Position numbers and translations under genes: made by a program
Shown: positions 27,601 to 51,441 of the stretch, in pieces
Layout of the letters: the number at the start of each line of letters is the position of its first letter
Numbering within the stretch: position 1 is the first letter of the stretch
Notes under the pieces: generated by a model
What the model saw: only the letters and a program-made list of their open reading frames with translations
The model's database searches: none
Told to the model about the DNA's origin: nothing
Source of the DNA: a virus
Lineage: Duplodnaviria; Caudoviricetes
DNA length: 51,441 bases
Strand: one strand, 5' to 3'
Virus record (IMG/VR): IMGVR_UViG_3300022074_000068
Coordinates: 1 to 51,441 of that record

Positions 27601-27947
27601 TATTCTTTACCAAAATCAACTTTAATTACATTATCTTTGTATTTTATTGTTTTACCTTCTTCATCAAGCACTTCACCAAACATTCGTTTAGATACATAGT
27701 TGTATGCAAGTTCTGATGTACCAAAGTTAAATACTTCTTCGCTCTTACCCATAAGTAATCCAACAAGACCCTCATGTATTATTGATCCTACAGAGTGATC
27801 GATCTCAGACTTATATTCTTTCTCTGTCGTATCATAAGCACTCATCTTGAATTTATCATCACCAACATCCGTAAGTATAATATAGTAGTGACCCTTTTGT
27901 AAATTCATTTTCTTTGCAAATTCTATTGCATCTTTTTCACTTTCCAT
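27600..27947 (-). CDS. hypothetical protein
   Basis: Start moved to ATG 27947 (MESEKDA); ends NVIKVDF. Confidence 0.7.
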   Translation of the reverse strand: MESEKDAIEFAKKMNLQKGHYYIILTDVGDDKFKMSAYDTTEKEYKSEIDHSVGSIIHEGLVGLLMGKSEEVFNFGTSELAYNYVSKRMFGEVLDEEGKTIKYKDNVIKVDFGKE

Positions 27948-28311
27948 TTTTGTACCACTCCACAGGTATTGACTTCTCTGCCCATCTGTAATCGTGCTTG
28001 TTGCACCAATCAGCATAGGTTGTTTTACTACCCTTGTATATTTTGTTACGTGCGTTCATAAAAACAAAACGTATATCCAAATCTTTGTGTTGTTGTTTTA
28101 CCAAAGCCATCTTCACTCTATCTGCCTTATCAAAATGTCCTTTTGCTTCTACATAAATACCACTCTCGACTATATAGAAATCAGGAGTGTACGTTCTTGG
28201 CTTGGGTATGTAAAGAAACTTCTTTGATTCATACTCAAACTTAACTTTGTTTTGAGCCAAACCTTTTGCAAGATGCAACTCAAAGCGTGATCTGTATTTC
28301 ATTCTGTTCAT
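27937..28311 (-). CDS. endonuclease I (T7 gp3-like Holliday junction resolvase)
   Basis: YRSRFE, YTPDF, EAKG, DIRFVF, KTTYADWC; start moved to ATG 28311. Confidence 0.9.
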   Translation of the reverse strand: MNRMKYRSRFELHLAKGLAQNKVKFEYESKKFLYIPKPRTYTPDFYIVESGIYVEAKGHFDKADRVKMALVKQQHKDLDIRFVFMNARNKIYKGSKTTYADWCNKHDYRWAEKSIPVEWYKNGK

Positions 28312-28694
28312 ATGTTCTTTTTCAACCCTAAAGACTGCAGTCGTTTTTTTACATATCCTGCCAGTTTGGGGGATTGTTTTTCTAGTATAAGAAGTTCTTC
28401 TGTTAATCCAAGTATCGGAAGGCATATTACTTTACCCTGACTGCTGACGTAGTTTATTGTTTGAAATTGATTTTCTATTTTTACTATATCTCTTTTTTCT
28501 GTGTGGGAGGTGAGAGTTCCGTTGTCTGAAAAGTTTTCACGAAGAGTAAGGGGAATACCTCTTTCATGTTGACGTAAATGAACAACGTCTCTCCCACCAC
28601 CTGTCTCCACATGGGAGTCTATATAAACGTGGTACAAGTCCTCGTTTAATCCTAAAAGATCTATATGAAATTGATGGACATAAATAATTGCCAT
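28308..28694 (-). CDS. hypothetical protein
   Basis: 128 aa, translationally coupled on both sides. Confidence 0.7.
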   Translation of the reverse strand: MAIIYVHQFHIDLLGLNEDLYHVYIDSHVETGGGRDVVHLRQHERGIPLTLRENFSDNGTLTSHTEKRDIVKIENQFQTINYVSSQGKVICLPILGLTEELLILEKQSPKLAGYVKKRLQSLGLKKNI

Positions 28695-29584
28695 TACAGT
28701 GACTTCCTCTTCAATCTAGAATACCAAACTTGAGGTGGCTGTTTAGCTTTCGATGTTATCTTATCGTGTACTACTGCATCTTTCCAACAGTGTGCTTTGT
28801 ATCCACACATAGTACACGGTTTAGGTAGCAATTTGTTTCCTGTCCTGATTTCTTGACCATCTTGTTTGTACACCTCAAATACATCTTTGAATGGTACTTT
28901 GAACTCAAGTGATTCATCTGTCAATACTTTAATTCGTTCTTTGGCATCTGCCATATATTCTTTTCTATCGTTTGCTTGCCAATCAGGTGCTTCAACTACA
29001 GCTACTTCACCACTTGATTTGTTTATCACAATCCAACCACCAAACGGTAATCCTGTTGCTTCTCCATACAGATGCCCTTGCATGATGTAGCCAAATGGGT
29101 CATCCTCTTTTATTTTTTCGTATCCACCGTAACCTGTATACTTAAACTTGTATGCCCACTCACTTGCAGACTTTATATCCCAAACCTTATCTTGTCCAAA
29201 CTCATCACGTATAATCAAATCTAACGTGCCACTTACATCTGTACCATCTATGTTTAGACTGACGGCTTTCTGTTTGTCTATGATATCAACACCTGCCTGT
29301 TCTAACACAAGCACGGCTATTGCTTCTACAATATCACCAAACAAAAACCTGAATAACATATTGTATTGTATCTCTTGTTGTATGCCTTTCTTCTCAAGAA
29401 GTTGTTGACACACAGGTCTACCAAGACCTGACATTCTAATCTTGTAATGTCTTTCTTTATTTAACTGTTTACTGACAGCTTCTTCGCAAGACTTAGTAAA
29501 GTCTAAAACGGCTTCAGGGGGAAGGTCAACTTCCCCCCTACTTGCACGTTCCATATAGTCTTGTATTTTAAACAGGAGTAGCAT
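28694..29584 (-). CDS. Cas4/AddB-like PD-(D/E)xK exonuclease with probable Fe-S cluster
   Basis: RMSGLGRPVC, GTLD, DIKSAS, Q..LY, and C-terminal CTMCGYKAHC (1+3 Cys arrangement). Confidence 0.8.
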   Translation of the reverse strand: MLLLFKIQDYMERASRGEVDLPPEAVLDFTKSCEEAVSKQLNKERHYKIRMSGLGRPVCQQLLEKKGIQQEIQYNMLFRFLFGDIVEAIAVLVLEQAGVDIIDKQKAVSLNIDGTDVSGTLDLIIRDEFGQDKVWDIKSASEWAYKFKYTGYGGYEKIKEDDPFGYIMQGHLYGEATGLPFGGWIVINKSSGEVAVVEAPDWQANDRKEYMADAKERIKVLTDESLEFKVPFKDVFEVYKQDGQEIRTGNKLLPKPCTMCGYKAHCWKDAVVHDKITSKAKQPPQVWYSRLKRKSL

Positions 29585-30467: not shown

Positions 30468-31997
30468 TTACAGATCTACTTCAGATAAGTCAAGCCAATT
30501 CTTTCCTATTTTTAATTCGATGCCTACAGGCATATCGTATTCTATGCCATACCTACGTTTCGTCTCACTTGGCAAACACAACATTGCTTCAGATAATACA
30601 TCAATACACTGTTGCTTTTCATTCGGATGAACATCAAGAACAATAGAATCGTGTACTGTGTTGCAAATAACCGACTGCATTTTTAGTTCTCTCATCTGTC
30701 TATCTAGCTCCACCAACGCAATAGGCAATAGATCAGCCGTAGCGAACCCCTGAACAGGGTAATTACAAATAGCAGTACGATTGGTAGCTGTACCCCATTC
30801 TGTCCATCTAGCGTCAGGAAAACAGTATTCTCTTCCTGACGGTAATTTTATAATTTTTGTAGTCACAGCCTGCTTCTCAAGTTCTTTGTGCCACTCACTT
30901 ACCTGTTCATACTTCTCTTTAAATCTTCTGTAGTACGCTTGCTGACTTTGTGTACCACTGACACCACCGTACAATGGTTTGAATGTGTGTGCTTTTGCTT
31001 CCTGTCTAGAGCAGCCGATGATAGATGCAGTATAGCTGTGAACATCTGTGCCTTTCTTTACATCATCATATACCTGATTATCTTTAGAAAGAAAGCCTGC
31101 CACCCTGAACTCCAACTGTGAGTAATCACCCTCAAGTATGAAGCCATCATCAAATCTACTTTCGACAACCTTACGTATGGCAAACGTAGAACCACGTGGC
31201 ATGTTTTGAAAGTTAGGATTACGACTAGACAACCTACCTGTTGCTGTTACACATTGCATAAACTCAGGATGAATAAAATTGTAGTCATCCACATTGTTTT
31301 TCATACCCTCTACAAAGGTAGACAGATAGGTACGCAAAGCATTGTATCGAACATAAGCTTCACAAAACTCACGTGCATCACCACTTAGTTCAGATAGCCT
31401 ATCTTCTAGGGTTACCTTGTCTGTCTTGAAACCTGCTGATGCTGTATCTCTTGGTGTACGAGGTATGATTTTAAAACCTGCTACCTCGCCTGTAGATGTA
31501 TAGACTACACCTTTACCCTCACAAACTTTACATATTCGTTTAGCTTTACCAACACTACCGTCTTTCTTGAGAGGTGTTATCCTACCTGATCCACGACAAG
31601 TTTCACATTGACGACCGATTGTTTTGTAAACTATGTCAGTCATACGCCTGACGTACTGTACAAAGTCTTTGTTCTTCATACGTGTACGCATCTTAGGTTT
31701 GATTGTATTGCCACGCATCTCATGTCCAAGATTAAATGTAAGCGACCAAAGAGATTTGTCTTTTACTTTTCGTGAGTAAAGCAACACACTCTTGTCATCA
31801 GGACTTGCAAGATTGATAGGAGTATCTCCCATTGCGTTCTTGGCTAGTCTGTTCAGCTTAGTTTCCAACATGGTCATCTCATCCATGTACTGCTTTTCAA
31901 TATCTTCTAAGGTATCTGTGTTTATCTTTAGTCCGTTGTGTTCTATCCTAGATAGCGTGTTCGTCATCTCGAACGACAGTTTCAGTGTTTGTTTCAT
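30468..31997 (-). CDS. polA: DNA polymerase family A, polymerase subunit with DnaJ-like zinc-finger insert
   Basis: TATGRLSSRNPNFQNMPR, motif A DYSQLEFR, motif B RQEAKAHTFKPLYG, NYPVQG, motif C VHDS; CETCRGSG...CKVCEGKG insert. Confidence 0.92.
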   Translation of the reverse strand: MKQTLKLSFEMTNTLSRIEHNGLKINTDTLEDIEKQYMDEMTMLETKLNRLAKNAMGDTPINLASPDDKSVLLYSRKVKDKSLWSLTFNLGHEMRGNTIKPKMRTRMKNKDFVQYVRRMTDIVYKTIGRQCETCRGSGRITPLKKDGSVGKAKRICKVCEGKGVVYTSTGEVAGFKIIPRTPRDTASAGFKTDKVTLEDRLSELSGDAREFCEAYVRYNALRTYLSTFVEGMKNNVDDYNFIHPEFMQCVTATGRLSSRNPNFQNMPRGSTFAIRKVVESRFDDGFILEGDYSQLEFRVAGFLSKDNQVYDDVKKGTDVHSYTASIIGCSRQEAKAHTFKPLYGGVSGTQSQQAYYRRFKEKYEQVSEWHKELEKQAVTTKIIKLPSGREYCFPDARWTEWGTATNRTAICNYPVQGFATADLLPIALVELDRQMRELKMQSVICNTVHDSIVLDVHPNEKQQCIDVLSEAMLCLPSETKRRYGIEYDMPVGIELKIGKNWLDLSEVDL

Positions 31998-32544
31998 ATA
32001 ATTCCTCGAATGTTAAGCCAAAGGCTTCTAGTTGTTTTAATGCAACCTGTTCAGTTGCGACTACATCGGCAATGCCGTATTCTTCTACTATCTCTGCAGG
32101 TATGTCATAGAATGTCTTACCATCTTTGAGATACGGTTTAACCAAGTCTACTTCTTTTTGAGTAACATCGTATCGTTTTGCAAGAGACTCAAGTGATAAA
32201 GACCAACGCCTACCTTTTGATCTTAGGTATTCTGCTACCATAGTATCATACAGAACACCATCAAAAGTAAAACCACATGATCGCAGCCATGTTATGTCAA
32301 ACTTTATATTTTGTCCAACAAGAACATCTGCTCTGTCTAAATCTTTTTGTATCAAGTTTACAATATCTGACTCATAATTGTACTCGTTGTCTTTGTGATA
32401 GAAAAACTTGTAGTTAACGTGATCGTTTAACAACCACTTCCAACCCACTGATACTAATCGGTTATTGAAGTAGGGTAGTGCAGTAGTGCCACCCCCCTCT
32501 TTGTCTTGGTGTGTAGTTTCTACATCTAAAGTTAACACGTTCAT
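31948..32544 (-). CDS. 3'-5' proofreading exonuclease, separately encoded PolA N-terminal domain
   Basis: ExoI LDVET, ExoII GQNIKFD, YDTM, ExoIII YGIAD; start moved to ATG 32544 (TAATG overlap with helicase stop). Confidence 0.88.
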   Translation of the reverse strand: MNVLTLDVETTHQDKEGGGTTALPYFNNRLVSVGWKWLLNDHVNYKFFYHKDNEYNYESDIVNLIQKDLDRADVLVGQNIKFDITWLRSCGFTFDGVLYDTMVAEYLRSKGRRWSLSLESLAKRYDVTQKEVDLVKPYLKDGKTFYDIPAEIVEEYGIADVVATEQVALKQLEAFGLTFEELYETNTETVVRDDEHAI

Positions 32545-33770
32545 TAATAATATATCCCCCTTGAAATATCTATTTGAGCATTGATCATACCATGCCACCC
32601 ATTGATCTTGTTCTTAGATATACAGATGTGTCGCACTATGTTATCTATCTCACTTGATCCTGTCTTGCCTATACCTATAATGATGTCAGCTTCACCTGCC
32701 TTACCTGTCTTGGAATTGTCAAGCATAGCATAGTCAATAAACTGTCTGTCGTGTGCATCGTAACTTGCTTGGCTTACTGCCCACACAAGACACAGATTTC
32801 GTTTAGCTATCTCTCTTGCAGACACATAAGTTTCCTTCAAACGTTCATCTCCACGATTGTACTCACCACGTATTCTAAATTTGTCTAGCTGATCACAAAA
32901 CATGACATCAGGTTTGTTCAGCTTGGCATACTCATCTACCTCTTCTACAGATGTACCTACCGAATCCATAATAGTCAGATACGGTTCTATCTCTGTCTTG
33001 TATCTATCAAGGAGACTAAACCTCTGTGCTACCATATCTTCCTTTGTCAGTTCAAAGTATGATTGAATGATACGTAACTTGATTCGCTTGGCAGGTTCTT
33101 CGTTTGCCCAATACACAACCTGAAACCCTTGACGTATGTACGATGATGCAAGAAAGCAACAGAACGTTGTCTTACCCACTTCAGGTCTTGCAAACAAGAT
33201 ACCTAAGTTGCCACGATCTAAACCTTTGATGTTCTCATTTATTAAGTTGAATGTGAATGGGAAATCATTGTCACCTGCTTCTTCAGATAACAGTTCGTTC
33301 AGATCTTTGTCAACAATGGTGTAGGTGGTCTTGTCACCTATCCTGCCATCATCTACACTTTCGATGAGTTTCTTTAACTCACCAAACTCATCACTGTCAC
33401 CAGTGAATATGTCTAATGCTTTCTCTCCTATCTGCCTTGCTTTGTCTCGCAGCCACAGGTTATTTACAATGTCAGTGTGTAACTCATCGCTTTCTTTTGG
33501 TGCAACGAGTTGTACAATCATATCCTGTACACGATTCCTAGCTGAATCAGGCATGGCAGGATTACGGTCATTAAATATTGTGGACAGTTCAGGAACAGAC
33601 AGACTACGGTCATACTTGGTATGTGAATAGACTATCGTATCAAATATATCTTTGAGTTCATTGTCGAACATAGTCCGATCAATTTTATTTTTTACTTTAT
33701 TGAAGAAATCAATATTGAGACAAAAACCTATTACTTGTCTGTCAATTGATATAACGCCTGATGAAGTCAT
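32544..33770 (-). CDS. DnaB/T7 gp4-like replicative helicase
   Basis: Walker A ARPEVGKT, NEE, DQLDK, VSQA, KAGEAD, SKNK. Confidence 0.9.
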   Translation of the reverse strand: MTSSGVISIDRQVIGFCLNIDFFNKVKNKIDRTMFDNELKDIFDTIVYSHTKYDRSLSVPELSTIFNDRNPAMPDSARNRVQDMIVQLVAPKESDELHTDIVNNLWLRDKARQIGEKALDIFTGDSDEFGELKKLIESVDDGRIGDKTTYTIVDKDLNELLSEEAGDNDFPFTFNLINENIKGLDRGNLGILFARPEVGKTTFCCFLASSYIRQGFQVVYWANEEPAKRIKLRIIQSYFELTKEDMVAQRFSLLDRYKTEIEPYLTIMDSVGTSVEEVDEYAKLNKPDVMFCDQLDKFRIRGEYNRGDERLKETYVSAREIAKRNLCLVWAVSQASYDAHDRQFIDYAMLDNSKTGKAGEADIIIGIGKTGSSEIDNIVRHICISKNKINGWHGMINAQIDISRGIYY

Positions 33771-40936: not shown

Positions 40937-41058
40937 AATACTTTTTAAAAGAACTGTTAGAGCTTGTTAAATGGCTTTCCGTTGGGTTTGTTTGTGCTTA
41001 TGCTCTTGCAAGTTATCACGGTTTGGATACAAGCTTTAGTAATCTAATAGGTGCTTAA
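40933..41058 (+). CDS. 41-aa membrane peptide
   Basis: MKYFLKELLELVKWLSVGFVCAYALASYHGLDTSFSNLIGA*; AAGGTG RBS; ATGA overlap. Confidence 0.55.
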   Translation: MKYFLKELLELVKWLSVGFVCAYALASYHGLDTSFSNLIGA

Positions 41059-41059
41059 T

Positions 41060-41242
41060 ATGGCTTATTATTTTGAATGTGAAACTTGCAATACTAAAGA
41101 GTATTTTAATTATGTAATGCAATCTGAGTATTACGGCTTAAAGACTCCCAAAGCAAAAAAACAATCATATGAAACCGTTATTTGTAAATCTTGCATATCT
41201 AAAAAGGTAAGGTTAAAAGGTAACTATATTATAATTAAATGA
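41060..41242 (+). CDS. small zinc-ribbon protein
   Basis: CETC...CKSC; start moved to ATG 41060 (AGGTG RBS). Confidence 0.65.
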   Translation: MAYYFECETCNTKEYFNYVMQSEYYGLKTPKAKKQSYETVICKSCISKKVRLKGNYIIIK

Positions 41243-41253
41243 AAGGAAATAAA

Positions 41254-41643
41254 ATGAACTATCCATCAAGTATAAACAGTAATGTTAGAGCAAATAAAAC
41301 TATGTTTAGTAGTAATTTAACTCTTGAAGATATACCTCATAGAGATCATAAGTTAAGAAATATCGCAAAGGTTGAGAATTGCAAAAGCACTAGATCAGGT
41401 AAAGCAATAGCAAATCAATTTATTATTACTTTACAAAATGGTATTAAGATATTTCAATCTTATGATACTATTATTGCAATAAAAGCAAATGGTGAGACTT
41501 ACCTTGATTATGAATGTTGGAACTATTCAAATACTACTTCAAGATATCGTAAAGAGTTTCTTGGTGAAGATACTAGAACAACAAAAAATAAAATAGATCA
41601 AGGTAAATATATACTTGAATATTTAAATAAAAAGCTTTATTAA
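41254..41643 (+). CDS. conserved phage early protein of unknown function
   Basis: ANQFII...FQSY.TIIA...W.YS.TT..YR..FLG; TGAAAGGAAA RBS; start moved to 41254. Confidence 0.75.
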   Translation: MNYPSSINSNVRANKTMFSSNLTLEDIPHRDHKLRNIAKVENCKSTRSGKAIANQFIITLQNGIKIFQSYDTIIAIKANGETYLDYECWNYSNTTSRYRKEFLGEDTRTTKNKIDQGKYILEYLNKKLY

Positions 41644-41661
41644 TAAAACTTCCTCCATGTT

Positions 41662-41696
41662 AAAGCACTTTAGATTAGTTTCTAAGGTGCTTTTTC
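41662..41696 (+). terminator. intrinsic terminator ending the early gene block
   Basis: AAAGCACTTTAGA-TTAGTT-TCTAAGGTGCTTT followed by further T residues. Confidence 0.75.
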
Positions 41697-42120
41697 ATTT
41701 CATAGCCTGATATATCCTTAAATAATTGTTTTGTTTATGTATTCGCCTTAAACGGTGTTTGGCGTATTGCTCGCAATAGTGACAGTAAAAGGTATTAATC
41801 GAGGGTTAGTTATACAGTTAACTAAATGACAAAAAGAATTACATGGGCGTATGCGTGCGAAGTTAACCTTTTGTTGTTGTGGTGGGTGTTGTGGTGGGTG
41901 GTTTGTTAGCCTGTGGTATTGATTGGTTTTATCATTGATATGATCGTAAAGATTTCTGCCGTGTACGCACGCAAGAGCCACCCGGGGCCCCACCGTATTT
42001 GCATGCAATGTCGGCATATTTTTACTAGAATGAGTTAGTTGTACAGGTAACGGTGCATCCCTTTGGGATAGCGTATTGGGAAGGAGGGGATATAGTGTAT
42101 TTCCCCGGAGGTTCTACTCC
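41697..42120. other. non-coding region, probable genome terminus / pac region
   Basis: Longest gene-free stretch; GC- and G/T-skewed patches; lies upstream of the terminase operon. Confidence 0.45.
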
Positions 42121-42121
42121 G

Positions 42122-42196
42122 ATTGTACTGACCTATTCCTGTTCTGTCAATAAAATAATTATTTTTCTTGACGTATTCGTGCAAAGTTCTTATTAT
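42122..42196. promoter_or_regulatory. divergent sigma70 promoter pair
   Basis: Minus strand: TTGACA (42150-42145)-17-TACAAT (42127-42122); plus strand: TTGACG (42168-42173)-17-TATTAT (42191-42196). Confidence 0.75.
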
Positions 42197-42304
42197 AAAG
42201 GTAACAAAGTGTCATTTAAAGCACATACAACCAACAATTACCTGAAAAACAAGTGTAATAGGCTTTATTTGTTTGATTCTTTGTCAATTTAACGAAAGAA
42301 AGTA

Positions 42305-42526
42305 ATGTTTCAAGCATTTGTACTCATATGCCTTATAGGTATGCCCACTGAAAATAGATATTGTGAAGAATTAGCCGACACAAGAGGACCATACATGCTG
42401 CACGACAAGTGTCTTGCACGAGTATATGAGATAAAAGAGGAATTGCACCTCTACAAACCTAACATGCAAGCACGAGCATACCGTTGTGATGAATTTACTC
42501 CCCAAACAGAAAAGCAAAGCACGTGA
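42305..42526 (+). CDS. small Cys-containing protein with hydrophobic N-terminus
   Basis: MFQAFVLICLIG...C...GPY....CLAR...YRC. Confidence 0.7.
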   Translation: MFQAFVLICLIGMPTENRYCEELADTRGPYMLHDKCLARVYEIKEELHLYKPNMQARAYRCDEFTPQTEKQST

Positions 42527-42896
42527 AATAAGTCCTCAACAGGAGCAATTTCTAGAAGTACTCTTTGAAAATGGTGGAAACGTAACTGATGCAGCCCTCA
42601 AAGCAGGATATGCAAAGGGATCAGTGACGTGGCTACGCACATCTTTAGCAGATGAGATCATAAACCGTACAAAGAACATACTATCTATGAACGCATTTAA
42701 GGCAGCTACACGTCTTGTAACTACTATAGACAACCCAATACCTGAAAGAGGGGATGACCTACGCTTCAGGGCGGCAGAATCGCTGTTAAACAGGGTAGGA
42801 CTGGGTAAACAGGAAACAACCAACGTAAATGTACAGGCAGTACACGGAATAGTTCTGTTGCCGCCTAAGAAAGACGTTGTAATCGATGGAAACTAA
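42486..42896 (+). CDS. terS: terminase small subunit
   Basis: HTH-like Q..FL..LFE.GGN...AA.KAGY; AAESLLNRVG; C-terminal GIVLLPPK; directly upstream of TerL. Confidence 0.8.
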   Translation: MMNLLPKQKSKAREISPQQEQFLEVLFENGGNVTDAALKAGYAKGSVTWLRTSLADEIINRTKNILSMNAFKAATRLVTTIDNPIPERGDDLRFRAAESLLNRVGLGKQETTNVNVQAVHGIVLLPPKKDVVIDGN

Positions 42897-44568
42897 GAAG
42901 CGTGGTCGCCCAAAGAAAGACCCTAACGCACCCAAACAAAGATACAACTATTCATCTGCAATCAAAGCTCGTAAACAGACACAACGTAGACTTACTGAAG
43001 CCAAAAAACGAGCAACAAAGATAACGAGACAAGCAGAAAGTAAAAGAAGATATGCCAGAAAACTCGAAGAAAAAATCACCAAAGTCGACAAAGCTCTCAA
43101 TCAAAAAGAGACTACTGTTATCGACAAAACGGATCTGCAACAGCTTCCAGACGTTGTTGAGCAACTGGTGGATGGGCGTGAAATTATTTTTCAGCCGAAT
43201 GAAGGACCTCAAGAAGAGTTTCTTTCCTCAAGTGAAAGAGACGTTCTTTACGGTGGTTCGGCAGGGGGTGGCAAAAGCTTTGCCTTACTTGCAGACCCCT
43301 TACGGTATTGCCATAATAGCAACCATCGTGGGCTTCTTCTTAGGCGTACTCTGGATGAGCTAACAGAACTTATTGACAAGTCACGTCAGCTATATCCCAA
43401 AGCTTTCCCCGGTGCAAAGTTCCGGGAGTCAAAGTCAACGTGGCACTTTCCATCAGGTGCAACAATATGGTTTACCTATCTTGACAAAGACAAAGACGTA
43501 ACAAGATTTCAGGGTCAGTCGTTTAACTGGATAGGCATAGATGAGATAACCCAATATCCCTCGCCTTATGTTTGGGATTATCTCCGTTCACGACTAAGGG
43601 CAACTGATCCTGAACTGCAAAAACATCTGTACATGCGTTGTACAGCAAACCCCGGAGGAGTCGGAGGTTGGTGGGTCAAGAAGATGTATATCGATCCATC
43701 TGAACACAACTCGACTTTTCCTGCAATAGACATCGAAACAGGCAAAGCTTTCTTGTGGCCGCAAGGACATGAAAAAGCAGGTGAGCCACTCTTCTATCGT
43801 AGGTTTATACCTGCACGTTTGACTGACAATCCATACTTGTTGGCTGACGGACAATACGAAGCGATGCTACGATCCCTACCTGAAGTTGAACGTAAGCGAC
43901 TTCTTGAAGGCGACTGGGAAGTAACGGAAGGTGCAGCCTTTCCTGAATTTAGTAGAAGTAAACATGTGGTCCCGAATTTTGACCTTCCACCGAATTTCCC
44001 CAGAATACGTGCCGCTGACTATGGGTATGCGAGTCCTTCTTGTGTCCTGTGGGGTGCTATTGACTGGGATAACAATATATGGGTTTATCGTGAACTGTAT
44101 GTAAAACAGTTGACAGCAGAGCAGTTAGCAGATAGAATACTACAAGTAGAACAAGAAGATCCGACCCCCCACTATACTGTACTTGACTCATCGTGTTGGA
44201 ACAAGACAGGCTTTGGTCCTTCCATAGCAGAGACAATGATGAGATGTGGAGTGCGTTGGATGCCATCGGACAGAAACCGACTTCAAGGCAAAATGGAAAT
44301 ACATCGTAGGCTTGCCGATGACCCACGAACAGATGAACCTAGATTACGAGTATTTCCGAACTGTGTCAACCTTATCAAACAACTATCAGGTATACCTCTT
44401 AGCAAAACAAATGCAGAGGATGTGGACACAAAGGCAGAAGATCACGCATACGATGCACTACGATATATGCTAATGACAAGGATGACAGGATATGTGTCGA
44501 TTCATAAAACGCTTGGTGGTATTAAGAATCAAGTCTATCAAATGCAAGACCAAACATTTGGGTATTAA
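42886..44568 (+). CDS. terL: terminase large subunit
   Basis: Walker A YGGSAGGGKS, Walker B IGIDE, TANPGG, DYG, VYRE, DHAYDALRY. Confidence 0.93.
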   Translation: METKKRGRPKKDPNAPKQRYNYSSAIKARKQTQRRLTEAKKRATKITRQAESKRRYARKLEEKITKVDKALNQKETTVIDKTDLQQLPDVVEQLVDGREIIFQPNEGPQEEFLSSSERDVLYGGSAGGGKSFALLADPLRYCHNSNHRGLLLRRTLDELTELIDKSRQLYPKAFPGAKFRESKSTWHFPSGATIWFTYLDKDKDVTRFQGQSFNWIGIDEITQYPSPYVWDYLRSRLRATDPELQKHLYMRCTANPGGVGGWWVKKMYIDPSEHNSTFPAIDIETGKAFLWPQGHEKAGEPLFYRRFIPARLTDNPYLLADGQYEAMLRSLPEVERKRLLEGDWEVTEGAAFPEFSRSKHVVPNFDLPPNFPRIRAADYGYASPSCVLWGAIDWDNNIWVYRELYVKQLTAEQLADRILQVEQEDPTPHYTVLDSSCWNKTGFGPSIAETMMRCGVRWMPSDRNRLQGKMEIHRRLADDPRTDEPRLRVFPNCVNLIKQLSGIPLSKTNAEDVDTKAEDHAYDALRYMLMTRMTGYVSIHKTLGGIKNQVYQMQDQTFGY

Positions 44569-44571
44569 TAA

Positions 44572-46290
44572 ATGGCAGAAGATATAAAACTAGATAAAAA
44601 TCTCACTATCAATCAAGTTCTTCAGTTGACTGGGCGTGGTCAAACTGGAACGTTAAAACAAGCTATACAAAACGCAGGCTTGTCTCTTAATGATAAATTT
44701 TCTAGGATGCGTGAAACTGCGTTTTTAAAAAAATTAAATGAGGTGGGTGTTGAAGGTCATTTTACAGAATTAAATGCTGTAGAAAACTCTTTACGTGAGA
44801 TGTTTGATATAAGTGATGATGCAGGAGAGTTTCCACTAAAGAAAAAAACATTTGGTGCAAAAAGTAAATCAAGAAGTAAAACTTTAAACTTAAAAAAAGC
44901 AGACCAAGCACGTAAAGCTATAAAAGTTGAACTACCTTCTATAAAAGAAATAAATCAAAGTATACATACTGCAACTCAAAGACTAATAGCACAAGGAGAC
45001 ACTGCTACTAAAAAGCAAAAACTTAAAGACGCTACAAAATTTTATGAAGCTGCAGCTCTTCTTCAAATAAAACATCATAGTGGATTAAGAACAACAGAGA
45101 TAGTTAATTTAACAACTGGTAAACCTGCAGAAGGTGCTAAATACGGAACTGTGGTCAGAGGTTCAGACACTCTTGTTCAAATAAGTAATAAAGGTGATAG
45201 AACTAACTTTAGACTGTCATCTATGCCGATGGGTATACTACAAGATTTAGCAGAACGAAACGCATCTAACGATCTAAACAAATCTGCAAAATTATTTAAA
45301 ACAGGAAAAGGAACTCTTGAAAGCACAATAAACGAAGCTGTAAACGATGTGTTTAAACAAAATGAATTGATAATACGAGATCAAGACACAGGATTATCTA
45401 AAAAATTTACTGTTGGATTATTACGTAAAAATGTTTTTAGTGCCATAGACGATGAGTTTGGCACAGGTGTGGCTAACAGAGTACTAGGTCATTCTATCAA
45501 AGGAGATGTAGGATTAACTCACTACAAAGTAACAAGAACTTCACGAGCTAAACTTGATATTAATACTTTGGCTGCTGAAAGATTCAACAGCACATACTTA
45601 GCTGATATAGGACAGTCAAGTCCAAAAGCAGTTATGTCATCGTACAAGTTTGGAGAAAACTTCTTTCCAACTGAGCCTGTTGCAAAATTAGTAACACCTA
45701 GTCCAGTTGAAGAAGCAGCACAAAAAACAGGATTAAATTTAGAAACAAAGTCAGTTCAGGTAGGTGCTAACGTAGATAATCTTCTAAAAGATACTAACAA
45801 GAATATCGGACAGCTAGAAAAACAATTAGATAAGTTACAAGGACTTCAAACTCAAGTAGACGATTTAAAGAAAGATTCTAAAACAAAAAAAAGTTTATTA
45901 GAAACACCCTCATCTTCAGATGACATAAGCCAATCTATAAAAGATAAATTAGGAAAATTTGGTATTTTTCTTGGTAAGAAATTACCGTTGGTTGCTGCAG
46001 GTATTGTATATGCAGAACAAAAAGAAGCAGGTGCATCAACTGCAACAGCTTTAGGATACGCAGGTAGTGAGTTCCTTCCTGTATCAGCTTCTGATGTAGA
46101 CACGGCAGGTGCATTTGTAACAAAGGCACGTCAAGAGGGATTACCTGAAGCTATAGGTCTTGATACTGAAAAACAAAAACAAATGAATATCACAAGAAAA
46201 CAGAGATTAGCTGATAGAGTTAGACAAAACACATCAGTTACACCCCCCCTCGAAGAAGGGTTCATAAACCAAAACCAAATGGGAGAATAA
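44572..46290 (+). CDS. tyrosine recombinase-domain protein with long C-terminal extension
   Basis: SGLRTTEI (R), SNKG (K), GLLRK (HxxR-like), VLGHS (H), THY (Y); followed by a coiled coil and Gly/Ala hydrophobic helices. Confidence 0.75.
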   Translation: MAEDIKLDKNLTINQVLQLTGRGQTGTLKQAIQNAGLSLNDKFSRMRETAFLKKLNEVGVEGHFTELNAVENSLREMFDISDDAGEFPLKKKTFGAKSKSRSKTLNLKKADQARKAIKVELPSIKEINQSIHTATQRLIAQGDTATKKQKLKDATKFYEAAALLQIKHHSGLRTTEIVNLTTGKPAEGAKYGTVVRGSDTLVQISNKGDRTNFRLSSMPMGILQDLAERNASNDLNKSAKLFKTGKGTLESTINEAVNDVFKQNELIIRDQDTGLSKKFTVGLLRKNVFSAIDDEFGTGVANRVLGHSIKGDVGLTHYKVTRTSRAKLDINTLAAERFNSTYLADIGQSSPKAVMSSYKFGENFFPTEPVAKLVTPSPVEEAAQKTGLNLETKSVQVGANVDNLLKDTNKNIGQLEKQLDKLQGLQTQVDDLKKDSKTKKSLLETPSSSDDISQSIKDKLGKFGIFLGKKLPLVAAGIVYAEQKEAGASTATALGYAGSEFLPVSASDVDTAGAFVTKARQEGLPEAIGLDTEKQKQMNITRKQRLADRVRQNTSVTPPLEEGFINQNQMGE

Positions 46291-46291
46291 A

Positions 46292-46510
46292 ATGGCAGAC
46301 AATCTTAATCAAGGTGCAGCCTATATAATGGGATCAGACAAAGTATCAGTTGATGATGCTCAAGGATCTAACAGCTTATATAGAGAAGGTCTTGAGTTTA
46401 CTATGGAAGTAAATCAAGATGCGTTGCAAGTTGACATGCCAAAGAAGCAAACAAAACCTACTGTTGAAGCTTCTTTATTTGCAATGGCTGACGACAAAAA
46501 CTACTTCTAA
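46292..46510 (+). CDS. small acidic hypothetical protein
   Basis: GGGAG RBS; GAAYIM..DK...LYRE motif. Confidence 0.7.
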   Translation: MADNLNQGAAYIMGSDKVSVDDAQGSNSLYREGLEFTMEVNQDALQVDMPKKQTKPTVEASLFAMADDKNYF

Positions 46511-46525
46511 ATTATAGGATAAATC

Positions 46526-48649
46526 ATGGCTGATGAGAGTTTTCTTCAACCTGATGACGATACCCCTGTATCTATTGAAAATCCACAAGATCAGATGCCC
46601 GGATTGGCAGGGTACGTTAAATCTAAGTTTGAAGATGCAGAGAACGGCAGACGTTCTCACGAACTAAAATGGTTACAGTCTTATAAAAACTTTAAAGGTA
46701 TTTACGATTCTACAACTCAGTATCGTGATTCCGAAAGATCAAAAGTATTTATCAAGATAACCAAAACTAAAGTTCTTGCTGCGTATGGACAAATAGTGGA
46801 TATACTATTTAGTAATAAAAAGTTTCCACTTGTTGTAGAACCTACTCCTATGCCTGAAGGCATCGAGGAGTTTGCTCACATGAAAACTCCATTAGATGAA
46901 GCTGAACAGCCAGTTGATCCGTTTGGCTTTGAAGGCGATGGTAGAGAGTTATCTCCCGGAGCCATGTCGGCTAGTGAACCACACAAGTTAGGAACATACG
47001 GTAAAGATTTTCCTGACATGTTGGCATCAGGACCTGCGAAGATGGGTGAGCCACAAGTTAAGCCTGCACAGAAGATGGCTATGAATATGGAGAAATGTAT
47101 TCATGATCAACTTATGGACAGTAACGCAGTCAACGTATTTCGTAAAGCTATATTTGAATCAGCACTACTTGGAACAGGCATAGTCAAAGGTCCGTTAAAC
47201 TTTTATAAACGTGTTCACAACTGGCAGATGAATCCTGACAGTGGACAAAAAGAATACAGTCCTTATGAAAAGATAATGCCACGTATTGAGTATGTATCTC
47301 TGTGGGATTTTCACCCTGATCCATCTGCAACAAGTATTGAAGATTGTGAATACGTAATACAAAGACATCGTATGAATCGCCAACAACTTCGTGGTCTGAT
47401 TAAACGACCATACTTTGATGCGTCAGCTATTGAAGAGTGTCTTGCAAAAGGACCTAACTACGAAGATAAATACTACGAAGATACCATACGTGAAGATGAT
47501 ACTGAACCTTACTATCAAGAAAACAGATACGAAGTTCTGGAGTATTGGGGTGTCATAGATAAAAAACTTGCAGATGAAGTTGGTATGGAAAATGCCAATG
47601 ATATGTCAGAGTTTGATCAGTTGCAAGTCAATGTATGGGTATGTGGTGGTATGGTAATTAGGTGTGTTGCAAATCCATTTACACCTGCACGATTACCTTT
47701 CCAAGCTTTTCCATTTGAGATAGATCCTTATCAAATATGGGGTGTCGGTGTTGCCGAGAATATGGAATACTCACAAAAGTTAATGAATGGTCACTATCGT
47801 ATGGCTATTGATAACTTAGCACTTGCAGGTAATCTTGTATTTGATGTAGACGAAGCAAGCTTAGTTCCCGGTCAAAACATGGATATATTCCCCGGTAAGA
47901 TATTTAGACGACAGTCAGGTGTAACAGGCACAGCAATCAACGGACTAAAGTTTCCAAACACTGCACCAGAAAACATACAGATGTATCAGATATCAAGACA
48001 ACTCGCTGATGAAGATACAGGTATACCATCTATACTACACGGACAAACAGGTGTAACAGGAACTGGTAGAACCGCTGCAGGACTATCCATGTTGATGGGT
48101 TCAGCAGGACTGGCAATGAAAACAGTTATAAAGAATATAGATGATCATTTACTAAAGCCACTAGGCGAATCTTTGTTTCAATGGAACATGCAGTTTAATG
48201 ATGATTTGGGGGAGATAAAAGGGGATCTAGAAATAAAACCTCGTGGGGTTGCAGCAGTTATGCAAAAAGAAGTGCGTACACAAAGATTAACTGCTTTGCT
48301 TCAAACCGTATCTAACCCAATGCTTGCACCTTTTATTAAGATACCTAACTTGATAAGAGAACTTGCAATAGCACAGGATATTGATCCTGATACGTTAGTC
48401 AATGATGCCAACGAAGCACAACTATACGCTGAAATGTTAAAAGGAATGATGGCTAATGTACAACAAGGAGCAGGCGAGGATGCTGTCGCCACTAATCAAC
48501 AGCAAGGAATGGGTCAACCTAGTGGAGTACCTCAACAACCTGAAGGAACTGACAGTCAAGGGTCTGGTAACGGCACAATCGGAGTCGGAGCTACGCCAAC
48601 TGCAGGGGAAACTGGCTTTACTGGAAATGCTCCTAGAGTTGAAGAATAA
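46526..48649 (+). CDS. portal protein
   Basis: 707 aa; S.VFIKITKTKVLAAYGQ, LGTGIVKGP, WG.GV.ENM...Q, RTA.GLSMLM; disordered Q/G-rich tail; between terminase and scaffold. Confidence 0.88.
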   Translation: MADESFLQPDDDTPVSIENPQDQMPGLAGYVKSKFEDAENGRRSHELKWLQSYKNFKGIYDSTTQYRDSERSKVFIKITKTKVLAAYGQIVDILFSNKKFPLVVEPTPMPEGIEEFAHMKTPLDEAEQPVDPFGFEGDGRELSPGAMSASEPHKLGTYGKDFPDMLASGPAKMGEPQVKPAQKMAMNMEKCIHDQLMDSNAVNVFRKAIFESALLGTGIVKGPLNFYKRVHNWQMNPDSGQKEYSPYEKIMPRIEYVSLWDFHPDPSATSIEDCEYVIQRHRMNRQQLRGLIKRPYFDASAIEECLAKGPNYEDKYYEDTIREDDTEPYYQENRYEVLEYWGVIDKKLADEVGMENANDMSEFDQLQVNVWVCGGMVIRCVANPFTPARLPFQAFPFEIDPYQIWGVGVAENMEYSQKLMNGHYRMAIDNLALAGNLVFDVDEASLVPGQNMDIFPGKIFRRQSGVTGTAINGLKFPNTAPENIQMYQISRQLADEDTGIPSILHGQTGVTGTGRTAAGLSMLMGSAGLAMKTVIKNIDDHLLKPLGESLFQWNMQFNDDLGEIKGDLEIKPRGVAAVMQKEVRTQRLTALLQTVSNPMLAPFIKIPNLIRELAIAQDIDPDTLVNDANEAQLYAEMLKGMMANVQQGAGEDAVATNQQQGMGQPSGVPQQPEGTDSQGSGNGTIGVGATPTAGETGFTGNAPRVEE

Positions 48650-48677
48650 TCACGAAAGAATAAATAAGAATGTCTGA
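48456..48677 (+). CDS. small helical protein overlapping the portal 3' end
   Basis: W..L.EYL...ELRQLQGK..LL..L..LK pattern typical of the small gene after the portal; AAAGGA upstream. Confidence 0.65.
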   Translation: MYNKEQARMLSPLINSKEWVNLVEYLNNLKELTVKGLVTAQSESELRQLQGKLALLEMLLELKNNHERINKNV

Positions 48678-51153
48678 ATTTTTTGACTTTGCTTTAGATT
48701 TTGGTCTTACTTACTTTGAACCACCTTCAGAGAAGAAAGATGTATTGTCAAGGGAACGTTACAGCAAAGGCAATGTAGATTTCTACGAGCAAAGTTTAGA
48801 TGACACTTTAGGAACTGGTATTGATCTTAAATTTAGAGACGATGATGATGAAGATGATAAAGAAGATGATATAAATGTAAATGTTGTAGGCGATTCAGGA
48901 GAAGATCAATCAACTTTATCATTTTCTGAAATGGAATCTTCATTTGATAAAGATCAGATTAGTTCTTCAAATATATATGATATGAGTATAGGAACTTATG
49001 GAGATGCACTATCAAAAGCAGGGTTTGCTGATAAGACACCATTCAATGTTTTTGGAAAAGACATATATACAGCAGGTGTACCAAAGACAACAGCAGAAGC
49101 AAAGGAAGGACTTGAAAAATTTATATCTAAAGAGGGTCTAGTAAACAAAGCTGTTAAAACAGGAGCTAGAATGTTAGGTATGAATCCTATGATAACAGGT
49201 GTGACTATGGGTTTTGCAAACGGTAAAACAGTAGAAGATCCATTAGGCAATCCAAGTTTTAGACCTAATCATTTTGCATTAGGTGCTATTCACGATATAA
49301 ATATGTCTATACAGTACGACAATATAAGTGCCATACAAGCATCGTTGCGAGATCCAAAAAGTAACATGAGGGGGTTTGCACAATATATAAACGGTCAACT
49401 TGTATCACGGGCCCCGGGAGAGTTTGCGTATAGTGGCACTGGTGCGATAGGACTAGATCAAGAAACATTAAACAGAATAGATGCTTTGTCAAAGGGTATC
49501 GTTCCAAGCACGTACGATTACAAAACTGAAACTGGAATAGCAGGAACACCTACAGGAAAAGGTGGTATGTATGACAGCAATGGCATGTATCATAATGTTT
49601 ATGGAACATATGGTATGGGGCCTCGTTCAGCATCTGAAGCTTTAGGTAAAAGTTCAGGACTTGGAACTGAAAAGATAGAAGAAATATTAGCTGAAGTAAG
49701 AGCAGATAAAAATAAAAATTTAAATGCAGAAATAGCAAAGGCACAAGCTGCAAATTTTGAGGAAGCACAAAGAAAACAAAGAGAAGAAGTAGAAAGACAG
49801 ATACGAGAGAAAGAAGCTGATACAAGTATTCCAACTGGACCTGATGATTATGGTGTTACAGATGATATATATTCAGCCTTTCAAGATACAACTCCTCAAG
49901 TAGACTACAGTTCTTATTATGATAATAATGATAATGATGACAGTCCGGGGGGAGGAAGTAGTTCTGGTGGTGATTCATCAGATATGGGATTCTCTACACG
50001 GTATGGTGGACAGATTGGTAAAGGTATGCAAGAGGGAGGTCCTGCAGGATTTATAGGCGGCCCACCAGAAAACTATAGCGATCAAACAACCATTGCAGAT
50101 GACATACCTCTAGAAGTCAAAGACGGTACTTTTGTTATAAATGCTCCTGCTGTAGAATATGCAGGATCAGATGATATTAGCGAAATGTTAACAAAAGCGT
50201 ACGAAAAAGCAGGACAAGCTATTGACAAATCTGGACAAAGGACTACAATACCAAGTAAGGAACAGATTAATATAATGATCTCACGAGGTGAGGTCGTAGT
50301 TCCTCCCCAAATAGCAAAGATCATAGGGTACGATCGTTTAGAGAAAATAAACAATCGTGGTAAAAAAGAAGTTACCAGACGACAGAAGCAAGGTAATCAA
50401 GAAAAGCCACAAGCTAGACAAGCTAACGAAGGTGGTATAATAACTATAGATGACATAAAATATAAAGAACGTTATCCAACTGCTGACAAAGCCAGAGAAG
50501 AAACAGAAAAAATATTACGATCTATACCCCTAGCTGACGCACTATCAATTATGATGTATGAAGAAGCAAATGTTTTAGGTGATAAAGGTATGGAGGGCGT
50601 AGCTCACGTATTTATGAATAGAGCAGATGCTGAAGGTTACAAAGATTTTGGTAAATCTTTAATTAATGAACTTTTAAAACGAACGTATACTAAAAACAGA
50701 ATATTTCAATTTAATGCTCTTGAACCAACTAAATTTAGAAATACTTTAAAAGTATTTAAAAAGAATAAAAATAAATATTTGAGCATACGTAATATAGCAG
50801 AAGAAGTCATCGCAGGTGCTAGAGAGGATTTTACAAAGGGAGCTTTGTTTTTTAAAAATCCTAAAGACTCTACTGAAAAAGGTTTTGCAAAAAGAGTAGC
50901 TTCTGGTGAACTTACTGAAACAGATAGAAGCAAAAAAGTGGGTGGTATTTTTCAACATATATATTACAGACCTAAAGACTTTGGCTTTGTTATGCAAGAA
51001 CCCTTGCCTGACACAGCTTCTGCACCAAAAGGTTTTATAGAAATACCAGAACGTAAAAGTCAAAATAGATTAAGAATACCTGAATCAAAGGGTGGATCAT
51101 TTCTGTTTAGAGGAAGTGATTATGAAAGAGGTGGAGCAACACCTGCTTTCTAA
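48670..51153 (+). CDS. multidomain virion protein with C-terminal SleB/Hydrolase_2 cell-wall hydrolase
   Basis: MMYEEA..LG.KGM.GVAHV.MNR, QFNAL, D.TKGALFF.NP, HIYY; central ADDIP...GTFVINA and ISRGEVVVP units. Confidence 0.75.
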   Translation: MSEFFDFALDFGLTYFEPPSEKKDVLSRERYSKGNVDFYEQSLDDTLGTGIDLKFRDDDDEDDKEDDINVNVVGDSGEDQSTLSFSEMESSFDKDQISSSNIYDMSIGTYGDALSKAGFADKTPFNVFGKDIYTAGVPKTTAEAKEGLEKFISKEGLVNKAVKTGARMLGMNPMITGVTMGFANGKTVEDPLGNPSFRPNHFALGAIHDINMSIQYDNISAIQASLRDPKSNMRGFAQYINGQLVSRAPGEFAYSGTGAIGLDQETLNRIDALSKGIVPSTYDYKTETGIAGTPTGKGGMYDSNGMYHNVYGTYGMGPRSASEALGKSSGLGTEKIEEILAEVRADKNKNLNAEIAKAQAANFEEAQRKQREEVERQIREKEADTSIPTGPDDYGVTDDIYSAFQDTTPQVDYSSYYDNNDNDDSPGGGSSSGGDSSDMGFSTRYGGQIGKGMQEGGPAGFIGGPPENYSDQTTIADDIPLEVKDGTFVINAPAVEYAGSDDISEMLTKAYEKAGQAIDKSGQRTTIPSKEQINIMISRGEVVVPPQIAKIIGYDRLEKINNRGKKEVTRRQKQGNQEKPQARQANEGGIITIDDIKYKERYPTADKAREETEKILRSIPLADALSIMMYEEANVLGDKGMEGVAHVFMNRADAEGYKDFGKSLINELLKRTYTKNRIFQFNALEPTKFRNTLKVFKKNKNKYLSIRNIAEEVIAGAREDFTKGALFFKNPKDSTEKGFAKRVASGELTETDRSKKVGGIFQHIYYRPKDFGFVMQEPLPDTASAPKGFIEIPERKSQNRLRIPESKGGSFLFRGSDYERGGATPAF

Positions 51154-51163
51154 AAAAGAATTA

Positions 51164-51226: not shown

Positions 51227-51245
51227 ATTAATGAGGTATAAAACT

Positions 51246-51441
51246 ATGGCAACACAAGTAAAGGGCGTAAGAGCCAACAAACCAAACGATTCATTTGGAG
51301 TAACAAACAACGACAATCTTTATCGTGGCAAATATCGTGAAGATGTTTACAAAGATGAAGAGGAACAAACAGAAGAAACTCAAGACCCCACACAAGTGGC
51401 TACTCAAGAGAAACCAAAACCTTCTGAAAATAGTTTTGCAG
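51246..51441 (+). CDS. putative capsid scaffolding protein (3' truncated)
   Basis: GAGG RBS; MATQVKGVRANKPNDSFG...LYRGKYREDVYKDEEEQTEE...; acidic; gene order portal, then scaffold, then capsid. Confidence 0.65.
   Translation, partial: MATQVKGVRANKPNDSFGVTNNDNLYRGKYREDVYKDEEEQTEETQDPTQVATQEKPKPSENSFA

Follow-up and report, generated by a model that had tools for sequence, protein, structure and literature searches.

Between the genes for the large terminase subunit (TerL) and the portal of the virus record IMGVR_UViG_3300022074_000068 (Duplodnaviria; Caudoviricetes), which was analyzed as one stretch of 51,441 bp (in the following called the window; it is the complete IMG/VR record, with an estimated completeness of 96%), lies a gene (44572..46290, + strand) encoding a protein of 572 amino acids (aa). 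Judging by the predicted fold, by catalytic residues kept across the family and by relatives that bridge the gap to PF00589, we conclude with high confidence that the protein is a divergent two-domain tyrosine recombinase, to which a C-terminal extension is attached. An earlier note on this DNA had already read the gene, beginning 3 nt past the end of terL (44568), as that of a tyrosine recombinase, and both the reading frame and the identification were upheld. Tentatively, and giving it somewhat less than an even chance, we propose that an active recombinase, produced alongside the head proteins, would enter the capsid by means of its tail and be delivered with the DNA.

The superfamily is known. 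What appears to be new is the core invisible to Pfam, the extension by a coiled coil and a tail, the fixed slot beside the portal gene and the shuffling of alleles and tails. The family is not described in the literature searched; the supplements of PMC9038755 (gene families of 207 genomes), which lay outside the search, may list it as hypothetical.

Sequence and fold of the recombinase core

The window protein has no match in Pfam (none to PF00589 at E <= 1), PHROG or NCBIfam. Searches with tblastn of this protein and of the family member P0038 against 50,697 phage records gave no match, and a sequence search of the Protein Data Bank (PDB) with the protein and with the family profile yielded coiled-coil noise only. 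In a collection of 5.8 billion proteins 26 other relatives were found, and the family profile, run against 1.84 billion representatives, found 77 clusters at 50% identity, mostly of 550-880 aa. The bridge to PF00589 runs through these relatives. P0038, which is matched by the family profile at E = 1.2e-44, matches PF00589 at 37.8 bits (cut-off 27.1); against the same cut-off P0115 scores 27.0 and P0027 23.4 bits, and the homologue in the contigs L020 and L021 is matched with 20.2 bits over model positions 6-166 of 172. Four of 22 aligned members match PF00589 themselves at E <= 1 (best P0027, E = 5.6e-5). Since only family members, and not the window protein, match PF00589, the link of the latter is a transitive one.

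With 22 sequences as input, AlphaFold2 gave a confident model of residues ~10-370 and a poor one of residues 306-326 and 373-572. With this model Foldseek placed lambda Int, Tn1549 Int, Cre, Xer and IntI at the top of the PDB matches (best E 4.4e-3; probabilities 0.97-1.00). VIA-align against 48,161 chains gave as its first 28 matches exclusively tyrosine recombinases, type IB topoisomerases (TopIB), TR-fold prophage regulators or integrase N-terminal domains, with Z = 11.7 for 3nkh from S. aureus (170 aa, rmsd 4.4), 10.8 for Brujita Int, 9.3 for the core of lambda Int, 9.0 for XerA, 8.9 for Tn1549 Int, 8.8 for XerH, 7.9 for Cre and 7.6 for XerD; more than 20 further recombinase or TopIB chains match. 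The TopIB structures (Leishmania, variola, human, bacterial) reach Z = 7.5-8.7 with the catalytic domain, below the integrases. The comparison of folds proposed in the earlier note thus puts the integrases above TopIB. As regards a protelomerase, which would have a large palindromic target near its gene, TelA came no higher than rank 28 in Foldseek (E = 0.16), and the longest palindromes within 41000-46600 measure 12-14 nt.

Two domains are predicted. The N-terminal one (aa ~5-118; 44584..44925, +) was recognized with VIA-align as a core-binding (SAM-like) domain, similar to 2kj5, 2khv and 2kj8 (Z = 5.6-6.0, 81-84 residues aligned, rmsd 2.8-3.1). The second one, the catalytic domain (aa ~119-370; 44926..45681, +), was assigned by fold match and residue conservation. 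It contains R173 (codon 45088-45090, +), K207 (45190-45192, +), R285 (45424-45426, +), H307 (45490-45492, +) and Y318 (45523-45525, +), that is, the catalytic R, K, R, H and Y in the order given in the earlier note, with Gly (G282) replacing the usual first His. The model puts K207 into the turn that joins strands 200-206 and 209-214 and R285 into a helix; H307 and Y318 fall within the low-confidence loop 306-326.

R173, K207, G282/R285, H307 and Y318 are each at least 90% conserved in the 22 aligned homologues. When 101 family proteins were aligned to the family hidden Markov model (HMM), 66 spanned the catalytic region. Of these proteins 64 retain R173, 63 K207, 52 R285, 63 H307 and 50 Y318, and the departures are confined to a divergent subgroup with alignment gaps. 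The conservation across the family, which the earlier note had wanted to see checked, points to an enzyme that is probably catalytically competent. Position 282, the first His of HxxR, is occupied by Gly in 30 of the 66, by Lys in 10, by Ser and Arg in 4 each, by Asn in 3 and by Ala in 1 (gap in 14), and in none by His. Because this His also varies in TopIB and in some recombinases, its replacement does not exclude membership of the superfamily.

Extension, tails and the slot beside the portal gene

The earlier note had counted about 250 extra residues after the catalytic Tyr. The first ~50 of these (319-370) form helices that are confidently modelled and belong to the recombinase domain; the extension as such is real and amounts to ~200 residues beyond residue ~370, made up of a linker, a 42-residue helix (394-435 according to DSSP) and a low-confidence tail (440-572). 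The coiled coil seen at first reading was found again: the helix region (aa ~389-438; 45736..45885, +) matches coiled coils (Z ~5.5), and within it K393, I412, L415 and L425 are almost invariant in the 22 aligned homologues. The Gly/Ala-rich hydrophobic stretch did not turn out to be a helix of membrane grade, its best 19-residue Kyte-Doolittle mean being 1.47.

The tail of the window protein (aa 440-572; 45889..46287, +; pLDDT < 50), here designated type a, is variable and behaves as a portable cassette. There are at least five tail types, with sharp boundaries, and at least three of them are found on both major types of recombinase domain. The tails of P0004 and P0115 are 78% identical over 116 aa (E = 7e-56), and the N-terminal parts of ~430 aa are without BLASTP similarity. 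The type-a tail of the window is also present on P0025 (77% identical, with a different recombinase domain) and on P0027, the type-b tail also on P0114 and P0115, and the tail of P0015 also on P0038 and on the proteins of L053-L055. These sequence comparisons indicate that recombinase-domain alleles and C-terminal tails are shuffled independently. A shufflon-like arrangement with silent tail cassettes in the genome found no support, there being no second copy of the tail among the window open reading frames (ORFs) of >= 80 aa. A search of the ESM Atlas with the tail gave scores <= 0.80, TM < 0.5 and no lead; a complex prediction of the tail (aa 440-572) with the portal and the small protein s72 (see below), run without controls, had a score of 0.00 and points neither way.

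Homologues of some of these tails occur at the end of another protein of the operon. Downstream of the portal gene, and before the 3'-open ORF at the end of the record, lies a gene for a protein of 827 aa (48670..51153, +) with a cell-wall hydrolase domain (PF07486, 31.5 bits, cut-off 27; aa 638-737). Such a placement together with a hydrolase domain is typical of virion-borne lysins. A search of all ORFs >= 80 aa from the window and 21 loci showed that the last ~50 aa of type-b tails have a homologue at the C-terminal end of the post-portal protein, both in L007 (41-43% identity over 54 aa, E = 2e-5 to 2e-4) and in L008 (E = 9e-4 to 0.04). In a shuffle test covering 35 tail-protein pairs the type-b tails gave z = 6.1-11.2 against the L007 and L008 proteins (0-1 of 1000 shuffles scored as high). 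The type-e tail of L020 gave z = 5.5 (0/1000 shuffles) against the end of the window's 827-aa protein, and the tail of L016 a weaker z = 3.4 (6/1000). Since portable tails thus also occur on the post-portal hydrolase protein of sister phages, packaging of the recombinase gains indirect support.

In the virome X2, contigs join across 1,284 nt (48719-50004) and 719 nt (50436-51156) of the post-portal gene (depths 94 and 78); these junctions point to coexisting length or module variants of the 827-aa protein.

The portal of the window is 44-51% identical to the portals of the Pelagibacter phages HTVC033P, 103P, 104P and 115P, of Roseobacter CRP phages and of the Puniceispirillum phage HMO-2011, and the window therefore represents an HMO-2011-type marine podovirus; its lifestyle is apparently lytic. 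Among its relatives the order TerL, recombinase, s72, portal was found in 18/18 loci of the first viral scan, wherever flanks were present, and in 5/5 loci from scans with distant alleles (four with a P0038-type allele, and L057). The synteny survey suggested by the earlier note thus finds the slot kept in 23/23 related viral contigs where flanks are present, some contigs being cut at one flank. Identity to the window is 33-78% for the recombinase as against 78-97% for TerL and 68-96% for the portal; L057 is a more distant carrier (TerL 57%, portal 62% identical). Judged from these identities, the recombinase gene evolves far faster than its neighbours.

The virome X2 contains one contig that is exactly the gene (44539-46318), without differences and with a depth of 73.7 as compared to ~120-170 for the flanks; loose ends at both gene borders run into other sequences. 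This pattern is as expected for several alleles on common flanks in one population. Flanking repeats or target duplications were not seen at the gene borders.

The gene for s72, a small acidic pre-portal protein of 72 aa (46292..46510, +), begins 1 nt after the recombinase stop and is present in all 22 recombinase-bearing loci that reach that far. A role of s72 as dedicated partner of the recombinase is ruled out by s72-like proteins in genomes lacking the recombinase, namely in L026 (E = 8.7e-8) and, weakly, in L030 and HTVC033P. Proteins of the s72 family are small and acidic, are encoded ahead of the portal and keep a motif at the C-terminus (L026:1202-1432; a tandem duplicate at L030:2091-2549). 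L030 is an HMO-2011-type contig (portal 52% identical to that of the window) without a family recombinase, from an assembly titled Pelagibacteraceae single-cell genome, which hints at SAR11 as host of a sister lineage.

Possible roles: packaged enzyme, integrase or late enzyme

The earlier note had placed the gene outside any lysogeny module and had proposed late expression. This is supported by the tight spacing, by the lack of a terminator-like site between TerL and the portal, by two conserved promoter-like sites and by the lack of lysogeny genes, and on the simplest reading of the sequence the recombinase would be co-expressed with the portal and head genes. The first site is a sigma-70-like promoter (42168..42196, +; 10/12 consensus matches) upstream of ORF42305-TerS-TerL (TerS, small terminase subunit), of which the -35 TTGAC and the -10 region are kept in 5/5 aligned relatives. 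The second one resembles a promoter and falls within the 3' part of terL, ~430 nt ahead of the start of the recombinase gene (44110..44138, +; 11/12 consensus matches); both its hexamers are kept in 20/20 close loci (13 distinct versions). Third-codon positions of this site vary in 0/4 cases inside the hexamers vs 7/11 outside, and all positions taken together in 1/12 vs 15/33; in the distant carrier L057 the site is absent. The upstream block is closed by a terminator-like hairpin (41662..41693, +; a 13-pair stem, then a T run), with an equivalent of different letters in L007 and L010. Across the region promoter-like and terminator-like counts are overall at chance level. An RNA library (run X15) yielded contigs identical to three gene pieces, one spanning recombinase, s72 and portal; because carry-over of DNA is possible and the contigs show no transcript ends, they were not counted as evidence for expression.

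Since the core is constrained, the slot fixed, the alleles turn over, the tails are common with a likely virion protein and no lysogeny apparatus was found, an enzyme carried in the capsid fits best. We propose that the core (core-binding plus catalytic domain, with R173-K207-R285-H307-Y318), fused via the coiled coil to the portable tail and transcribed together with the portal and head genes, would use the tail, or the coiled coil plus tail, as a capsid- or portal-docking module. The tail would load a few enzyme copies into the procapsid beside the post-portal cell-wall-hydrolase protein. On infection of the next host the enzyme would be brought in with the DNA and would start to act on DNA immediately. 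Its target would most probably be the genome of the incoming phage, and its action either site-specific joining or circularization of terminally redundant ends (cf. Cre/lox of P1) or topological or end processing. Packaging, ejection and DNA substrate are speculative. It is possible, and somewhat more doubtful, that the protein is specifically a virion-delivered site-specific recombinase whose polymorphic alleles are loaded through docking tails common with a cell-wall-degrading internal protein; it may then travel covalently or non-covalently on the genome end and would rejoin, circularize or integrate the DNA upon entry.

Several findings weigh against delivery in the capsid. No known ejection protein was found to be related in sequence or fold, and no candidate recombination site (lox-like, dif-like or other) was identified. 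Ordinary temperate phages, too, typically exchange integrase alleles with their relatives. The 827-aa protein is a putative internal virion protein by its hydrolase domain and position, and its AlphaFold model (mean pLDDT 41) is unusable. The earlier note had seen in the terminal EEGFI of the recombinase an echo of the end of this protein; in the window itself the tail shows no significant similarity to it (z = -0.6; 734/1000 shuffles), and what stands of the echo is the homologous tail/post-portal cassette in sister phages. The gene is absent from the cultured HMO-2011-type relatives: in HMO-2011 terL adjoins the portal gene, and in HTVC033P and HTVC115P three or four small ORFs lie between them. 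Nor was a family member found at HMM E <= 1e-3 in any of 28 more distant HMO-2011-type contigs in genome assemblies, where the slot is empty or holds unrelated ORFs. Because it is absent from these genomes, the gene is accessory and not a core part of the virion. In other phages, too, non-structural genes are often inserted between terminase and portal, according to PMC7302621 and PMC5513430; because of this, position alone means little for packaging.

An unconventional lysogeny integrase is what chiefly competes with capsid delivery, and we consider it unlikely. The phage would be temperate, attP would lie in a 650-nt noncoding region ~2.3 kb upstream or inside coding sequence, and the tail would serve as an accessory arm that binds DNA or protein. 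The full two-domain, integrase-like fold with its intact pentad would suit such a role, two relatives are labelled 'integrase' by a source, the genome is without any other integrase (a canonical one was not found with PF00589 across the genome), and allele swapping at a fixed locus is common in integrase modules. Other HMO-2011-type subgroups have tyrosine integrases, and CRP-3 is said to integrate, according to PMC9038755; the same source lists subgroups IV-X as without one. It places the published integrases upstream of the replication module, and this position speaks against an integrase in the terL-portal slot.

The surroundings of the gene also argue against this role. As the earlier note had stated for the vicinity, there is no att-like intergenic space (the gaps are 3 nt and 1 nt), and a PHROG scan of 36 window ORFs gave no match to a repressor, excisionase or integrase; ARAGORN found no tRNA in the window. 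Integrated relatives, for which the earlier note had called, were not encountered: the family profile, which recovered 5/5 records in a positive control that included the most divergent alleles, found no member in 401 sampled genomes of the order around a Pelagibacteraceae assembly, in 401 sampled genomes of the family around a Rhodobacteraceae assembly (802 host-group genomes in all), or in the 28 related contigs. A scan of 185,579 species genomes with a narrow pattern found no integrated relative, and a DNA search with 41400-46600 against 401 SAR11-order genomes gave short AT-rich chance matches without att-like identity. The one match that recurred in the search for attB was discarded: it falls in a Lys-rich part of a housekeeping ORF of 347 aa, and no tRNA lies near it. 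Because host identity is open and genome samples were searched, these results weaken the integrase reading and do no more.

The 650-nt noncoding stretch upstream of TerS (41644-42304) contains blocks that are strongly conserved in close relatives, one at ~41996-42013 with a perfect 10-bp palindrome and one at 42104-42128 with a 5-bp inverted repeat and a 6-nt spacer. It may be a packaging site, an origin or a regulatory site; Rfam found no family in the whole window. The two blocks occur only in close relatives, the recombinase-free genomes being too distant for comparison. They are identical in loci with different recombinase alleles, which leans against their being the site of the recombinase, and hence against an attP in them.

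Less likely still than an integrase is a late recombinase or topoisomerase that stays in the cell, resolving multimers as Xer or Cre do or relaxing DNA at the packaging site, with the tail tethering it to terminase, portal or procapsid. Such an enzyme would be in keeping with a gene directly after terL in the same operon, with the intact catalytic residues, with a likeness of fold that reaches to TopIB (Z = 7.5-8.7) and with Lys at the first-His position in 10/66 members, an arrangement resembling that of poxvirus TopIB. Against it stand the sister lineages, all cultured isolates included, which package their DNA without the recombinase, and the extreme allele diversity at one locus within single samples, which would be odd for a housekeeping maturation enzyme. 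Moreover, two proteins encoded by the phage itself, one endonuclease/Holliday-junction-resolvase-like and the other a Cas4-like exonuclease (27937-28425 and 28694-29584, - strand), bear on the processing of replicated DNA. With the resolvase-like gene present, resolution of concatemers by the recombinase is less needed.

Least probable of all, in our opinion, is a selfish or arms-race cassette (a mobile recombinase in a permissive terL-portal hot spot, or a host-directed or anti-defence effector), for which the variable slot (empty, small ORFs, a 347-aa basic protein, a ~195-aa protein), the fall of the gene to 33% identity while TerL keeps >= 78% and the several alleles on common flanks in one virome can be cited, and against which stand vertical retention across deep clade divergence (23/23 loci), borders without repeats or target duplications, the clear constraint on the catalytic residues and the overlap of the effector form with capsid delivery if the protein is ejected.

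The terL-portal slot is a general hot spot for accessory genes in HMO-2011-type lineages. At L026:162-1202 it holds the Lys-rich basic protein of 347 aa, and at L028:5113-5709, L039:2613-3215 and L046:9380-9955 a common conserved protein of ~195 aa.

The phage and the known systems

The genes around the recombinase were identified as those for TerS (42486..42896, +; phrog_51, E = 4.7e-5, a weak match), TerL (42886..44568, +; PF03237, E = 3.1e-10; phrog_979, E = 4.1e-62) and the portal (46526..48649, +; PF23899, E = 2.3e-27). Besides tail genes and a methyltransferase, the scan of the 36 ORFs with PHROGs revealed a minus-strand replication module, which encodes a primase, a helicase, a DNA polymerase (two ORFs), a nucleotide kinase, a ribonucleotide reductase and two nuclease-like proteins. 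The DNA polymerase is encoded by two overlapping minus-strand ORFs (30468-32598), one for the exonuclease (216 aa; 31948-32598) and one for the polymerase (509 aa; 30468-31997); a gene that is truly split, a programmed shift or a fault of the assembly could each account for this. A major capsid protein was not matched among the 36 ORFs, and the coat gene may therefore lie in the missing ~4% of the genome. The ends of the record cut open reading frames (1-298 and 51231-51441), and its assembly is probably permuted or broken.

HMO-2011-type phages rank with the most abundant surface-ocean viruses (PMC9038755). A whole clade of them has a recombinase that is invisible to standard annotation, in a place where no integrase is expected, and this is the most variable gene of the packaging and head operon. 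Should it be an ordinary integrase, lineages now taken for strictly lytic ones may be temperate. Should it be packaged, it would provide the first known example of a tyrosine recombinase carried as cargo in a phage virion, and its tail would be a natural and portable tag for loading the capsid. In both cases, the family with its 77 clusters widens the sequence range of the superfamily and may offer compact recombinases of presumably varied site specificity.

The closest systems by fold are lambda Int, Brujita Int, 3nkh from S. aureus and Tn1549 Int, with which the window protein has in common the two-domain architecture, the canonical order of R, K, R, H and Y and the placement of these residues in the canonical structural elements. 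It differs from the integrases in having no Pfam match, in a first His that is never His, in a spacing between H and Y of 11 residues as compared to the usual ~9, and in the extension of ~200 aa with coiled coil and tail; its gene lies in a packaging and head operon without attP-like space or lysogeny genes.

P1 Cre and Xer belong to the same superfamily and have the same fold. Cre joins or resolves the phage's own DNA, the Cre/lox system of P1 acting after entry of the DNA, and the role proposed here for the window recombinase resembles that of Cre. The differences are that a lox- or dif-like site was not found for the window recombinase and that Cre, to our knowledge, is neither encoded in a head operon nor known to be packaged.

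With TopIB the protein has the catalytic fold in common and a residue other than His at the extra position of the pentad, which in poxvirus topoisomerase IB is Lys, as in 10/66 family members. In contrast to TopIB, the N-terminal domain of the window protein matches the core-binding domains of integrases and not the TopIB clamp, and the integrases score higher.

T-even internal proteins are encoded at a polymorphic locus and carry a common N-terminal capsid-targeting sequence, which is cleaved off by the prohead protease. Divergent cargo alleles at one locus between conserved genes, combined with a short conserved targeting part, are what the two systems would have in common; the part common to the alleles is C-terminal in the window family, and no protease was identified.

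Internal virion proteins of podoviruses carry, as passenger domains, enzymes that are destined for the cytoplasm (Hardies et al., PMC4819975). N4 gp50, the virion RNA polymerase (vRNAP), and the methylase domain of H66 gp60 are alike in concept: the enzyme is attached to a helical or coiled-coil part that targets it to the virion, and its gene lies among those for structural proteins. The window protein differs from them in that it has no sequence or fold homology to any such protein and in that its gene lies beside the portal gene and not in the tail/internal virion protein block.

Poxviruses package TopIB in the virion and thus provide a precedent for delivery of this fold in a particle. A recombinase delivered by the virion would be the phage counterpart of retroviral integrase or of the topoisomerase IB packaged by poxviruses.

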